Source of the DNA: an uncultured Gemmatimonadales bacterium
GTDB taxonomy: Bacteria; Gemmatimonadota; Gemmatimonadetes; Longimicrobiales; RSA9
Direction: 5' to 3'
Assembly: GCA_963783305.1 (NCBI GenBank)
Contig: CAWAMW010000014.1
Coordinates: forward strand, 25,288-89,287
Length of the DNA: 64,000 nucleotides
The notes beneath the pieces are model-generated. The model saw only the letters and a program-made list of their open reading frames with translations. It ran no database searches and was not told the origin of the DNA. Positions 8,461 through 21,988 of this stretch are shown piece by piece (within the stretch, counting starts at the first letter, position 1; every line of letters begins with the position of its first letter). Made by a program: the position numbers and the translations under genes.

Positions 8461-8560
8461 GAGGCGGGAGTAGGAGGCAGGAGTAGGAGGCGGGAGTAGG
8501 AGGCGGGAGTAGGAGGCAGGAGTAGGACCGGTACTCTTACTCTTACTCTTACTCCTACTC
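8455..8560 (+). repeat. 13-bp tandem repeat GAGTAGGAGGCRG (5 full + 1 partial) followed by complementary TACTCY hexamer repeats
   Basis: units start at 8455, 8468, 8481, 8494, 8507, 8520; TACTCT x3, TACTCC, TACTC at 8532-8560. Confidence 0.95.
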
Positions 8561-14339: not shown

Positions 14340-14930
14340 ATGAAGCCGAGACTTAAGCAGCACTACGACGAGCGGGTCAGCCCGCGGCTCATGGACCAGT
14401 TCGAGCTGGAGAACCCGTATCGGGTTCCGCGGCTCGAGAAGATCGTGATCAACGTGGGAATGGGCGAGGCGGCGAAGAACCCCAAGCTCATCGACACGGT
14501 GGTGGACGAGCTGACGCGGATCACCGGGCAGAAGCCGGTGGTGACGCGTGCGAAGAAGTCCATTTCGAACTTTGGTCTGCGCGAGGGCATGCCGGTGGGC
14601 GCCAAGGTCACCCTGCGCCGGGAGCGGATGTACGAGTTCCTGGATCGGCTGATCAACGTGGCGCTGCCGCGGGTGCGCGACTTCCGGGGTCTGCCCACGC
14701 GCTCCTTCGACGGGCGGGGGAACTACACCCTCGGGGTCAAGGAGCAGGTGATCTTCCCGGAGATCGATTACGACGCGGTGGACGAGGTGCACGGAATGGA
14801 CATCGTGCTTGTCACCACCACGGAGAAGGACGACGAAGCGCTGGCACTGCTCAAGGAGCTGGGGATGCCGTTCCGGGGCGAAACACCGCTGGTGGTAAGC
14901 GGTGAAGACATTCCCGGTCCGACGGAGTAA
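14340..14930 (+). CDS. rplE: 50S ribosomal protein L5
   Basis: [28 protein letters not shown] 14340. Confidence 0.98.
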
Positions 14931-14938
14931 GGGAACCG

Positions 14939-15130
14939 ATGGCACGCAAGGCACAGATCGAAAAGCAGAAGGACCCGAGCAAACTCAAGTTCTCGTCGCG
15001 CGCGACGAACCGGTGCAACCGGTGCGGCCGTGGCCGGGCTTTCATCCGGAAGTTCGGCATCTGCCGGATCTGCTTCCGGGAGATGGCGTTGAACGGCGAG
15101 ATCCCGGGCGTCCGCAAGGCCAGCTGGTAG
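14939..15130 (+). CDS. rpsN: 30S ribosomal protein S14, Zn-binding (type Z)
   Basis: CNRC...CRIC, GVRKASW. Confidence 0.98.
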
Positions 15131-15288
15131 TGCTGCGCGCTACCAGCTGGGCGTAGACGGTTCTCGGTACACGGGAACAGCGTGGGCGGGACAAGGCGGG
15201 TGCGGGAGGTCGGGGCAGGGTGCTTCGGCGACAAACAGAGGTGGGAGTGAGTCGAAGGCTGGGAGGCGCAGGGGCTTCCGCGACGAAC

Positions 15289-15340
15289 CTTCTACAAGTC
15301 CGGGACGTGAAGTGGCCGGATACTATAGGAGCGAGTAGAA
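15289..15340 (+). promoter_or_regulatory. candidate S8-binding translational operator (16S h21 mimic)
   Basis: AAGTC (15296-15300) / GATACT (15319-15324) on a stem whose base pairs CTTCTA with the SD TAGGAG. Confidence 0.7.
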
Positions 15341-15344
15341 CGAT

Positions 15345-15737
15345 ATGATGACCGATCCAATCGCCGACATGCTGGCGCGGGTCCGCAACGCATCACAAGC
15401 GGGTCACAAGCGCGTGGACATGCCGGTGTCGAAGTTGAAGGCGGAGATTGCCCGCATTCTGATGGAGACCCATTTCGTCCATGACTACAAGGTCCTGGAC
15501 GACGGCCGCCACGGGGTGCTCCGACTCTACCTGAAGTACCATGAGGACCGGCCCGTGATTCGCGGCATGAAGCGCATCTCCACGCCAGGCCGGCGGGAGT
15601 ACGCGGGTGTGGCCGATCTGCCGCGGGTGCGCAACGGTCTCGGCACGGCGATCATTTCCACCTCGCGGGGAATCATGACGGACCGCGAGGCGCGGGAGAA
15701 CAACGTGGGCGGGGAAGTCCTCGCCGCGATCTGGTAG
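15345..15737 (+). CDS. rpsH: 30S ribosomal protein S8
   Basis: [28 protein letters not shown]. Confidence 0.99.
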
Positions 15738-15750
15738 GCGGGGGGCGAGC

Positions 15751-16287
15751 ATGTCACGAATCGGGAATCAGCCGATCGAGCTCCCGCAGGGCGTCGAAGT
15801 GAACGTGAGCGGCGACCGGGTGCGGGTGAAGGGTCCGAAGGGGGAGCTGGAGCGTCAGGTCCGTCCGGAGGTGAACGTGAAGGTGGAGGACGGTCAGGTT
15901 CTGGTGACGCGGTCTTCCGAGACGAAGCAGCATCGGGCCTTCCACGGTCTGACGCGGGCGCTGGTGGCGAACATGGTCGAGGGTGTCTCGACCGGGTTCC
16001 GCAAGGCGCTGGAGATCGTGGGCGTGGGGTACAGGGCCGACAAGCGGGGGAACGATCTCGTCCTGATCGTGGGGTACTCGCACGACGTGACGTACCCGGA
16101 GCCGGAAGGGATCTCCATCACCACGCCGACGCAGACGACGATCGTGGTGGAAGGGATCGACAAGCAGAAGGTAGGGCAGGTCGCGGCGGAGCTGAGGGCG
16201 GTTCGACCGCCTGAGCCGTACAAGGGCAAGGGCATTCGCTACCAGGGTGAACAGGTCCGCCGCAAGGCGGGGAAGACGGGCGCATAG
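15751..16287 (+). CDS. rplF: 50S ribosomal protein L6
   Basis: [16 protein letters not shown]. Confidence 0.99.
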
Positions 16288-16295
16288 AGGATACG

Positions 16296-16679
16296 ATGGC
16301 GAATAGAAAGAAGACGAGCCGACGGGAGACGCAGCGGCTGCGACGCCATCAGCGGGTCCGGTCGAAGGTGGTCGGGACCGCGGAGCGTCCGCGCCTCGTG
16401 GTGCACCGGTCGCTGAAGCACATCCAGGGTCAGATCGTGGACGATGTCGCCGGCAAGGTGCTGGTGGGTATCTCGACCACGTCCCCGGACCTGGTGAAGC
16501 TCCGGGGCGACGAGGAGACGGACAAGACGGCGCTGAGCAGGGAAGCCGGCAAGCGGATCGCGGAGAAAGCGAAAGAGGCCGGGATCGAAGCGGTAGTGTT
16601 CGATCGGGGCGGGTACCTCTATCACGGCCGCGTGGCGGCCTTTGCCGAGGGCGCCCGCGAAGGCGGCCTGCAGTTCTAG
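16296..16679 (+). CDS. rplR: 50S ribosomal protein L18
   Basis: [22 protein letters not shown]. Confidence 0.99.
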
Positions 16680-16693
16680 GGGAGCGGAAAACG

Positions 16694-17221
16694 ATGGCGA
16701 AGAACAACCGAGGCGGTCGCAGGGGCCGGCAGGAATCGGATCTGACGGAGACCGTGATCGATATCAACCGGGTCGCGAAGGTCGTGAAGGGCGGACGTCG
16801 GTTCTCGTTCACCGCACTGGTGACGGTGGGGGACAAGAGCGGTCGCGCCGGCATCGCGGTGGGCAAGGCCAACGAGGTGGCCGAGGCGATCCGGAAGGGA
16901 ATGGACCAGGCGCGCAAGGCGATGGTCGATGTCCCGATGGTCGAGGGCACGGTGCCCCACGAGATCGTGGGGCGTGTCGGTGCGGCGCGTGTGCTCCTGA
17001 AGCCGGCGGGGCCGGGTACGGGAGTGATCGCGGGCGGCGCCGTGCGTGCGATCCTGGAGGCGGCGGGCTACACGGACGTGCTGACGAAGAGCCTGGGCTC
17101 GAACAACCCGGTCAATATGGCCCGGGCGACGATGCAGGGGCTGGACGTGATGGTGACGGCCGAGCAGGTGGCGAAGGAGCGAGGCGTGACGGTGGAGGAG
17201 CTGGGGGTGCGCGGTGGCTGA
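16694..17221 (+). CDS. rpsE: 30S ribosomal protein S5
   Basis: [22 protein letters not shown]. Confidence 0.99.
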
Positions 17222-17423
17222 ATCGAAGCAGGGTACGGGAAAGCTGCGGATCAAGCAGGTCCGCAGCTCCAACGGCCGGCCGCGTAAGCACCGGGCGACA
17301 CTGGAAGCGCTGGGCGTGAAGTACCAGCGGAGCGTGGTCCAGCCGGACAACGCGGCCATACGGGGAATGATTTTCCAGGTCCGCCACATGGTCGAGGTGG
17401 AAGAGCTGGAGGGCGAGGAGTAG
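17214..17423 (+). CDS. rpmD: 50S ribosomal protein L30
   Basis: [19 protein letters not shown]; position. Confidence 0.96.
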
Positions 17424-17425
17424 CC

Positions 17426-17878
17426 ATGACGGATCTGAACAATCTCCGGCGTCCCAAGGGGGCGGCCGGCAACAGCAAGCGCGTGGGTCGGGGTCCCGGC
17501 TCCGGGAACGGCAAGACGGCCGGCCGGGGTCACAAGGGGCAGAAGGCGCGTGCGGGTCACCACGGGATGCCGGCGTGGTTCGAGGGCGGTCAGATGCCGC
17601 TCCAGCGGCGGCTGCCGAAGCGCGGCTTCACGAGCCACAAGAAGAACGACTTCGAGATCGTGAACGTGAAGGACCTCGGCCGGATCGATGAGGACCCGAT
17701 CACGCCGGCGATCATGCACCAGCACGGTCTGATCGACCTGGGTCGCAACCTGCCGGTCAAGGTGCTGGGCAAGGGCGCCCTGGAGAAGAAGGTCACCGTG
17801 AAGGCGCACGCGGTGAGCACGGGCGCGCGGAAGAAGATCGAAGACGCAGGCGGTTCGGTCGAGCTACTGGAGGCATAG
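17426..17878 (+). CDS. rplO: 50S ribosomal protein L15
   Basis: GRGPGSGNGKTAGRGHKGQ, FEGGQMPL. Confidence 0.99.
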   Translation: MTDLNNLRRPKGAAGNSKRVGRGPGSGNGKTAGRGHKGQKARAGHHGMPAWFEGGQMPLQRRLPKRGFTSHKKNDFEIVNVKDLGRIDEDPITPAIMHQHGLIDLGRNLPVKVLGKGALEKKVTVKAHAVSTGARKKIEDAGGSVELLEA

Positions 17879-17882
17879 CGGG

Positions 17883-19199
17883 ATGGCGAATCCAATCCCG
17901 AACCTCTTCCGGATCCCGGAGCTCAAGAACAAGATCCTCTACACCCTCGGCGCTCTGCTCGTGTACCGCTTCGGCGCACACGTCACGGCCCCGGGAATCG
18001 ATGTGGCGGCGCTCGAGGCGCAGTTCGGGCAGCTGCAGGGGACACTGTTCGGCGTCTACGACATGTTCGTGGGGGGCGCGCTCAGCCGGGCGACGGTGTT
18101 CAGCCTGGGCATCATGCCCTATATCTCCGCCAGCATTATGTTCCAGCTGCTGGCGGCCGTCTTCCCGACCATCGAGAAGATGCAGAAGGAGGGCGAGGAC
18201 GGTCGGAAGAAGCTGACGCAGTGGACGCGGTACGCGACGGTGGTGCTGGCCCTCGCGCAGGCGTACGGGTACTCCATGTACCTCCAGAGCATTCCGGGGG
18301 CGGTCCTGAACCCGGGATTCCTCTTCGTCCTCAGCACGACGCTGGCCCTGACCACGGGTGGTATCTTCATCATGTGGCTGGGTGAGCAGATCACGGAGCA
18401 GGGGATCGGCAACGGCGCCTCGCTGCTGATCTTCTTCTCGATCATCGAAGGGTTCCCGACCGCCATCGTGCGGACGTGGGAGGCCACGATCACGGGTGTC
18501 ATCAGCTGGCCGAAGCTGATCATCCTCGTGGCCGTGATGATCGGTATCGTGGCGGGCGTCGTGGCCATGACGATGGCCAGCCGGAAGCTGCCAGTGCAGA
18601 TTCCCCGGAAGGTGATGGGACGGGGCAGGGTGCGGGAGGGGCAGAAGAGCTTCATCCCGCTGCGCGTGAACTCGGCCGGCGTCATGCCGATCATCTTCGC
18701 GCAGTCCATCATCATCGTGCCAGGGACCGCCGCGGCGTTCGTCGACTCCGCCTTCTTCCGCGGGATCGCCGACACCTTCCAGCCGGGGAACGCGGCGTAC
18801 TACGTGAGCTACGGGATCCTGATCCTGTTCTTCACGTACTTCTATACGTCCATCATCTTCAATCCGGTGGACCTGGCCGAGAACCTCAAGAAGCAGGGCG
18901 CGTTCATCCCCGGCGTGAAGCCGGGCGCACGCACGGCGCAGTACATCGACCACGTGCTCAGCCGGATCACGCTTCCGGGCGCGATCTACCTGGCGATGAT
19001 CGCCATGGTGCCGTTCTGGATCTTCGATATCTTCGATATCGAGCTGTTCTTCTTCGGGGGCACGTCCCTCCTCATCGTCGTAGGCGTGGGGCTGGACACG
19101 GTGCAGCAGATGCAGCAGCACCTGCTCCTTCGGCATTACGAGGGGTTCATGAAGAAGGGTCGCGTCCGGTTCCGCGGCCGACAACGCTATATGGGGTAA
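17883..19199 (+). CDS. secY: preprotein translocase SecY
   Basis: LGIMPYISASI, GIGNGASL, GVMPIIFA, GGTSLLIVVGV. Confidence 0.99.
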   Translation: MANPIPNLFRIPELKNKILYTLGALLVYRFGAHVTAPGIDVAALEAQFGQLQGTLFGVYDMFVGGALSRATVFSLGIMPYISASIMFQLLAAVFPTIEKMQKEGEDGRKKLTQWTRYATVVLALAQAYGYSMYLQSIPGAVLNPGFLFVLSTTLALTTGGIFIMWLGEQITEQGIGNGASLLIFFSIIEGFPTAIVRTWEATITGVISWPKLIILVAVMIGIVAGVVAMTMASRKLPVQIPRKVMGRGRVREGQKSFIPLRVNSAGVMPIIFAQSIIIVPGTAAAFVDSAFFRGIADTFQPGNAAYYVSYGILILFFTYFYTSIIFNPVDLAENLKKQGAFIPGVKPGARTAQYIDHVLSRITLPGAIYLAMIAMVPFWIFDIFDIELFFFGGTSLLIVVGVGLDTVQQMQQHLLLRHYEGFMKKGRVRFRGRQRYMG

Positions 19200-19206
19200 G
19201 GTTCTG

Positions 19207-19851
19207 ATGCGACTGATCCTCCTGGGGGCTCCCGGTGTCGGCAAAGGCACTCAGGGAGCCCTGCTGTCCAAGAAGCACGACCTGACGCAGATTTCCACGG
19301 GAGACATCCTCCGGGATGCGGTGCGGCGAGACACACCGCTCGGCCAGAAGGCGAACGGCTACATGAAGGCCGGCGAGCTCGTCCCGGATGAACTCATCCT
19401 CGAGCTTGTGCGGGAGGTGCTGAGGACGCGGGACGATAATTTCATCCTCGATGGCTTCCCACGAACACTGGATCAGGCGGAAGGGCTGAGCTCGATTCTG
19501 GCCGAGGCGGGGATCGAGCTGGACGGGGTGGTGGTGCTGCGGGCGCCTGACGACGTGCTGGTGAAGCGGATCAGCGGTCGGAGGTCGTGCCCGCAGTGCA
19601 AGGCGGTGTACAACGTGTATTTCGAGGCGCCGGCGGAGGACGGCCGGTGCGACCGGTGTGGCGCCGAGCTGGTGAGGCGGGTGGACGACGAACTGGCCAC
19701 CGTGGAGAACCGGCTGACCGTGTATCGCCGGCAGACGCAGCCGCTCATCGAGTTCTACGAGGCGTCGCACACTCCCGTGAGCTATGTGGACGGGACGAAG
19801 GACGTGGAAGAGGTGCAGGCGGAGATCGAGGAGAAGCTGCCGACGGCATGA
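19207..19851 (+). CDS. adk: adenylate kinase (Zn-finger LID)
   Basis: GAPGVGKGTQ, LDGFPRT, CPQC..CDRC. Confidence 0.98.
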   Translation: MRLILLGAPGVGKGTQGALLSKKHDLTQISTGDILRDAVRRDTPLGQKANGYMKAGELVPDELILELVREVLRTRDDNFILDGFPRTLDQAEGLSSILAEAGIELDGVVVLRAPDDVLVKRISGRRSCPQCKAVYNVYFEAPAEDGRCDRCGAELVRRVDDELATVENRLTVYRRQTQPLIEFYEASHTPVSYVDGTKDVEEVQAEIEEKLPTA

Positions 19852-20600: not shown

Positions 20601-20646
20601 CGGGTGGGCATTGGTGGTGGGAGTCGGGAAAGCTGTCGACCGGGGG

Positions 20647-20675
20647 TTGATGGGCGGGGGATGGGGCTGTATCTT
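20647..20675 (+). promoter_or_regulatory. sigma70-type promoter for rpmJ-alpha operon
   Basis: TTGATG, 17 bp, TATCTT. Confidence 0.6.
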
Positions 20676-20708
20676 TCAAAGCTGTCCGGTAAATGAAGAG
20701 GTGTGGCA

Positions 20709-21727: not shown

Positions 21728-21988
21728 GGCGCGGCCCGGCCGGCGGGGTCGGGGCGTCGAGAGTCGAGAGGGACAGCGGTATCATCGGGGTGGCCGGGAC
21801 GGAGCCGGGGCCCCGGCGGGAAGGAGGCTCTCTTGGGGGCCTCCTTCGGGTGCTTTCGCGGCGGTTGCCGCGGCGATACCGGCAGTAACGCAGGATGGAG
21901 CGCAGGAAAGAACGGATGTAAACCGCCGAGCCGTCCAGGCGGGAGGAAGTCCGAGAGACGAACGAGAGAACGGGAGTGAGACGGTCGA

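Follow-up and report, generated by a model that had tools for sequence, protein, structure and literature searches.

A conserved, covarying mimic of 16S rRNA helix 21 over the rpsH ribosome-binding site in Gemmatimonadota

The S8 operator of E. coli and the hairpin before rpsH

Feedback regulation by ribosomal protein S8 through mRNA mimicry of 16S rRNA helix 21 is a textbook mechanism. The two core strands of the E. coli operator are GAAACU (+6..+11 of rplE) and AAGUC (+80..+84), and the S8 site overlaps the rplE start (PMC3616713). The S8 site is described as containing two triples, (G597-C643)-U641 and A595-(A596-U644), together with an invariant A642, and a T. thermophilus variant of the site is given as G595-(C596-G644) (PMC4176348). 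More generally, the predicted r-leaders of Eckert and Weinberg (2020, PMC7247131) and the leaders in Rfam 15 are lineage-restricted cis-RNAs that precede the gene of their likely ligand, show covariation and mimic rRNA, and PMC11109978 describes 30 ribosomal leader candidates. How does S8 regulation work elsewhere? In PMC10931766, the regulation of uS8 in other species is stated to be unknown, and the 43-nt element described here provides a testable answer for one phylum.

The window, which is the whole 64,000-nucleotide stretch of DNA that was analysed, carries within an S10-spc-alpha cluster a 214-nt spacer between rpsN (14939-15130), which encodes a type Z (zinc-binding) S14, and rpsH (15345-15737, start ATG at 15345), which encodes S8. 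These genes and all parts of the element lie on the plus strand, as does the segment 3' of rpsH (15751-19851), and the genes downstream of rpsH as far as adk are spaced by -8 to 14 nt. The 5' part of the spacer (15131-15288) is variable and is not a genomic repeat. It is followed by a hairpin of ~43 nt, whose lower stem pairs the anti-Shine-Dalgarno (anti-SD) 5' arm CTTCTA (15289-15294) with the 3' arm TAGGAG (15326-15331), and this 3' arm holds the rpsH Shine-Dalgarno (SD) sequence AGGAG (15327-15331). Above the lower stem, C15295 (equivalent to 16S position 594) is mismatched against A15325 (equivalent to 645). The S8-site core then consists of AAGTC (15296-15300, equivalent to 595-599) opposite GATACT (15319-15324, equivalent to 639-644) with U641 and A642 bulged, and the hairpin is closed by an upper part (15301-15318) in which CGG (15301-15303) pairs with CCG (15316-15318) around a variable apical segment (15304-15315). 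In this register, G15298 corresponds to G597, A15322 to A642 and C15323 to C643.

The original prediction had placed the pieces of this hairpin at positions that all prove correct. Its claim that both strands are identical to the S8 motif of 16S rRNA agrees with the E. coli rrsA record, where 595-599 read AAGTC and 639-644 read GATACT, and with helix 21 of the host, both 16S copies of which carry the same two core strands. Host and E. coli S8 share 47% identity, and Tyr85 and the Ser-Thr-Ser RNA-contact residues are aligned and kept. A scan of the window with Rfam 15 gave no match at or above the gathering threshold, a promoter scan of 14800-15500 gave no sigma-70-like promoter, and no plus-strand terminator-like site was found around the element.

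The hairpin resembles the spc operator of E. coli and other gammaproteobacteria in its internal-loop core, its operon, its likely ligand and its location at a translation start, and it shares with the E. coli operator the close spacing of the downstream genes. The conserved S8 core of the spc operator, which comprises A642, G597-C643, the 596-644 pair and a bulged 595, is present in it. However, the E. coli operator lies at the rplE start, inside coding sequence, whereas the rpsH hairpin lies two genes further on, has rplE and rpsN upstream of it, and is wholly intergenic. Moreover, the E. coli operator presents the 639-644 strand first, whereas the rpsH hairpin presents 595-599 first, as in 16S rRNA, and the ~85-nt stem of the former contrasts with the ~43 nt and short apical part of the latter. 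Comparison with 16S helix 21 itself (E. coli 588-651) reveals the same 595-599 and 639-644 strands in the same register and polarity, with stems on both sides; unlike helix 21, the rpsH hairpin resides in an mRNA, has a 594-645 position that is mostly mismatched and an apical arm that is short and variable, and contains the SD in its lower stem. A reversed-order scan for an rplE-type site found none in the window and none in the Gemmatimonadota loci (0/25 and 0/29); the same scan detected the E. coli control as well as sites in 5/30 Pseudomonadota loci, of which four have E. coli-like sequence. The rpsH hairpin thus likely works like the spc operator, yet outside that family, and its position and opposite strand order relative to the E. 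coli operator suggest that this way of mimicking rRNA arose independently.

An arrangement directly before rpsH had been put forward as one not known to be described, and no prior description of an rpsH leader or motif was found either in Rfam or in the open-access literature searched. The main text of PMC7247131 does not contain rpsH, and among the Gammaproteobacteria rows of its Table S1 there is one for S8; term searches of the main text and one supplement of PMC8632094 gave no mention of an rpsH leader.

Other spacers in the window also have distinct features. The tuf-rpsJ spacer (8461-8540) starts with five near-identical 13-nt tandem units, after which come CTCTTA-type repeats that are partly complementary to them. 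The rpsK-rpsD spacer (21728-21988) is 261 nt long and GC-rich, and might accommodate an S4 leader. Just 102 nt (20601-20702) lie between a map-like ORF and rpmJ, so that infA is missing from its customary position in this cluster.

Conservation and covariation among Gemmatimonadota

Among relatives, the helix-21 mimic is conserved and shows covariation. In a set of 28 rpsH loci from 31 genomes, selected by protein alone, the core stands before rpsH in 21 (f1 15/16, f3 6/6, f2 0/6), where f1 and f3 are two families of the host order (Gemmatimonadota, Longimicrobiales-like) and the single f1 locus that lacks the core has a spacer of 19 nt. The helix-21-type pairs G597-C643, U598-A640 and C599-G639, together with unpaired U641 and A642, are likewise present in 21/28 loci. 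A pairing descriptor was passed by 20/28 rpsH upstream regions compared with 0.05 expected from shuffles, and by 0/28, 1/28, 0/21 and 0/25 of the control regions upstream of rplF, rplR, rpsN and rplE, respectively. Near-identical hairpins occur in records labelled Longimicrobiales, Longimicrobium or Gemmatimonadota, which is the basis for placing the host in Gemmatimonadota.

A class-wide pattern was then counted over 301 genomes for rpsH-adjacent matches only, and was found in 8/10 f1, 5/5 f3 and 19/31 f5 genomes, f5 being a third family of the class; adjacency to rpsH was judged by eye, and the raw tally of 91/301 has many matches away from rpsH. The pattern, which overlooks variants and was applied to assemblies some of which may be without rpsH, gave no match at rpsH in f2 (0/88), f4 (0/69) or f9-f13 (0/97), and for this reason the hairpin must be regarded as dispensable. 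Absence of the motif from relatives had been named in the original prediction as the observation that would refute it; instead, the motif is kept at the same position in f1, f3 and f5. The spacer around it diverges freely, the whole rpsN-rpsH spacer of relatives ranging from 55 to 251 nt, and the hairpin is retained.

A rearrangement of the operon was observed in all six f2 loci and in two f4 loci, where rpsN is lost from the spc operon, rplE abuts rpsH and the hairpin is absent (loci concerned: L021, L024-L028, L156, L158; L342-L346). The S14 gene lies elsewhere in the genome in the four f2 genomes and the one f4 genome searched, and the four relocated copies that were read encode 101 aa without the four-cysteine motif. 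The site did not move along in f2, in that none was seen before the four relocated rpsN genes inspected (of five loci).

A covariance model of rpsN-rpsH spacers and its comparison with Rfam had been suggested as a check on the reading. The model R1, built from 50 aligned members, gives one match in its own genome and one match per genome in 29/33 f1 and 30/33 f3 genomes; in f2 it gives 1/34, and this sole match is 16S helix 21 itself. Inspection of 40 of the 61 matches reveals that 38 lie directly before rpsH in the rpsN-rpsH spacer, 34 of them outside the training set, and one weak match has no rpsH nearby.

Within the 50-row alignment, 90.5% of cells are paired; the corresponding shares are 79.6% for shuffles and 35-47% for slid controls. 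For the helices that flank the internal loop, which comprise 13 pairs, the share is 96.7%, and 9 of these pairs show two-sided changes. The alignment has a covariation score of 0.326, against 0.121 for shuffles and 0.05-0.11 for slid controls, a score that comes from related sequences and is not a probability. The 596-644 pair is Watson-Crick in 50/50 rows (A-U 33, C-G 14, G-C 3), although these changes may amount to only two or three events. Because the rows were picked by patterns requiring GUC and GAUAC, the invariance of those letters is by construction. The 596-644 pair is not predicted by RNAalifold and has a ViennaRNA P of ~0.04; that it covaries even though folding programs miss it argues for an S8-type internal loop rather than simple stem stability. 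Position 595 is A in 39, G in 8, C in 7 and U in 1 of 55 members, and one f5 member has G595-(C596-G644), the Thermus variant. The 594-645 position is mismatched in 52/55 f1 and f3 members and in 14/17 f5 members (45/50 alignment rows are broken there), and is paired in the 16S rRNAs examined.

These observations bear on the possibility that the hairpin works without any protein, as a translational damper or an mRNA-stabilising stem, and that its likeness to helix 21 is incidental. The stems do fold without protein, a CU-rich 5' arm is needed by any SD-sequestering stem, and S8 binding to the hairpin is itself a prediction from sequence. Yet such a stem leaves unexplained both the retention of bulged U641 and A642 and the covariation of 596-644, a pair that the energy model disfavours, as well as the recovery of 16S helix 21 by a model trained on leaders and the placement of the element upstream of rpsH rather than of the genes around it. 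We therefore consider a protein-independent role to be quite improbable. Although the local MFE structure (-14.3 to -14.6 kcal/mol) is this hairpin, its folding stability is ordinary (z -1.3 to -1.4 locally; z +1.3 for 15270-15370).

Still less credible is the proposal that an rRNA fragment entered the spacer of a common ancestor and left the hairpin as a neutral remnant, or that the match is due to chance. The identity of the core letters with host 16S and the patchy distribution would be in keeping with it, but only the 11-nt core matches 16S and the hairpin stems differ from the 16S stems, both stems have undergone compensatory changes, and the hairpin has been kept in a spacer that otherwise diverges freely. 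Both strands occur together in 9/20000 dinucleotide shuffles of the spacer. Genome-wide, the two strands co-occur 17 times, and the 4 co-occurrences with a 3-bp upper stem are the two 16S copies, the rpsH hairpin and one other. A remnant or chance origin is contradicted by the conservation and covariation, and we assign it almost no weight.

Does the mimic follow the 16S rRNA of its host? It agrees with the genome's own 16S in the host, in G017 (f1) and in G020 (f3), and in G014 (f1) the 16S is one letter off. As a general idea, tracking of host 16S fails in f5. Five f5 genomes have a mimic as well as a 16S gene; the core of this 16S is AAGCG/CGAACU in four and AAGGG/CCGACU in one, and the mimics read xCGUC/GAUACG or xGGUC/GAUACC, unlike their own 16S core; the f5 mimic is therefore not a tracked copy of host rRNA there. 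In the f5 loci L217-L219 and L377-L379, the S8 core of 16S helix 21 is non-standard and the mRNA mimic retains GUC/GAUAC. If true, f5 with its drifted 16S would constitute a natural test of mRNA-versus-rRNA competition for S8.

Overlap with the Shine-Dalgarno sequence and proposed regulation

The AGGAG at 15327-15331 forms a duplex of -6.5 kcal/mol with the host anti-SD, and the distance from SD to ATG is 13 nt here (family range 4-15). In 53/55 f1 and f3 members, the 3' arm of the lower stem is part of the stretch that makes the best duplex with the anti-SD; in f5 the overlap is seen in 11/17, and 6/17 have their strongest SD 3' of the hairpin. The pairing of the lower stem with the SD, as originally predicted, thus holds at this locus and in 53/55 of the f1 and f3 members but is not universal. 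All 72 members examined have 14-23 nt between the core and the start codon. The lower stem of this genome reaches a P of 0.93 in a 66-nt frame and of 0.06-0.18 with more upstream sequence, and across the family, folded with the whole spacer, the median P is 0.98, with values below 0.5 in 6/54.

A second pairing, between TTCTAC (15290-15295) and GTAGAA (15335-15340), had been proposed as an alternative that also covers the ribosome-binding site. The complementarity is present in the sequence, but the pairing covers the spacer between SD and AUG and not the SD. As a conserved switch it is rejected, in that it occurs in 1/55 members with P <= 0.06 and is private to this genome; GTAGAA is not conserved and lies outside the element.

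We hypothesize that the hairpin is an S8 autoregulatory operator that would likely block initiation on rpsH, and we hold this reading, which agrees with the original prediction, with considerable though not full confidence; it is supported by a position conserved in three families and by covariation at 596-644, and S8 binding and repression would follow from these features. In the proposed model, free S8 would bind the internal loop and hold the lower stem shut, so that ribosome loading on rpsH would be blocked. When S8 is not bound, the lower stem could breathe or be displaced and rpsH would be translated, and S8 in excess of available 16S rRNA would stabilise the closed fold. The conserved 594-645 mismatch may set the affinity below that of rRNA, in a manner similar to that reported for the bulged C5 and U2 of the E. 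coli operator; according to Fu et al. (PMC3616713), bulged bases weaken the binding of S8 to this mRNA. Three of the features by which r-leaders are recognised are found here, namely a cis position upstream of the gene of the putative ligand, covariation, and an expression platform that overlaps the SD, and the alignment of the element provides a basis for a new r-leader family.

An alternative hypothesis is that S8 binds the hairpin with a different main output, which would be mRNA processing or decay, or a changed coupling to rpsN, and not SD occlusion. There is a precedent in that E. coli S8 retroregulates rplN-rplX via mRNA destabilisation (PMC10931766), and the 6/17 f5 members whose strongest SD is outside the stem, the long and variable spacers (55-253 nt), and the 5/55 relatives with a loose promoter-like match would all accommodate such an output. 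However, the overlap with the SD in 53/55 f1 and f3 members and the confinement of the core-to-start distance to 14-23 nt throughout argue against it, and we view it as unlikely, though less so than a protein-independent stem. Promoter-like sites were matched by a loose regex in 5/55 relatives only, and an internal promoter was for this reason left out of the definition of the element. RNA runs gave shares of 0.05-0.13, for contigs of other organisms only.

Some f3 spacers (L017, L018, L020, L418) have a promoter-like site, TTGACG-18 nt-TAnnnT, at a fixed ~35 nt before the hairpin, from which a separate transcript beginning with rpsH could arise in these loci.

Look-alikes before rpsH in other phyla

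A scan of GTDB contigs revealed at least 119 loci with the core before rpsH, and among the matches listed 18 belong to Gemmatimonadota and 101 to others. The stem test was passed by 47 of these 101 listed loci versus 2.7 expected, with the qualification that the loci are not independent and that the expectation was obtained with cores fixed and flanks shuffled, the control taking one strand pair per locus and the count any. Many of the 47 passes among the matches listed belong to one Bacteroidales lineage. Among the matches listed, look-alikes before rpsH were found in some Bacteroidales, Flavobacteriaceae, Anaerolineae and Clostridia, and also in some Lactobacillaceae, Myxococcota, Elusimicrobiota and Actinomycetota.

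Even per-phylum samples, from which centre genomes were left out, give a measure of frequency. The Bacteroidota sample contains 2/29 strict and 4/29 loose matches, about two of which look like chance, and the class Bacteroidia sample 1/29 versus 0.28 expected. The Actinomycetota sample contains 1/29 strict and 1/29 loose, at different loci, a count that takes in one unpublished genome (G169, locus L287), which is negative. The Chloroflexota, Bacillota and Pseudomonadota samples gave 0/29 each. With 0-4/29 per phylum in these samples, a general occurrence of the element among bacteria is rejected.

When R1 was applied to 90 other loci, 4 matches were obtained at E <= 1, two in Gemmatimonadota, one in Eubacterium (E 0.0016) and one partial, which indicates that the model misses most outside look-alikes. 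The different flanks, together with the failure of R1 on most look-alikes, suggest separate origins for the putative sites in other phyla. On balance, we lean slightly towards a broader model in which S8 autoregulation outside Gammaproteobacteria would have arisen repeatedly and independently at the position just before rpsH, with the Gemmatimonadota family as one clear case, and in which the mRNA site would converge on the canonical S8 fold even in hosts with a drifted 16S, as in f5.

Shewanella loci (L079, L093, L149) have a pair of core-like strands, with a lower stem of 7 bp, that overlaps the 3' end of rpsN; Shewanella also has the rplE operator (L318), and the core-like pair may be coding-driven chance. 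L034 and other Chryseobacterium loci, as well as L036, L041, L043, L073, L076, L081, L127 and L143, have conserved core-like strands before rpsH and fail the stem test, with a multi-branch or shifted lower stem; such loci are possible further S8-site scaffolds in Bacteroidota. The record of L139 is titled as a betaproteobacterium, and its rpsH region is like those of the Bacteroidota loci L081 and L143, which may reflect a mislabelled or mixed bin.
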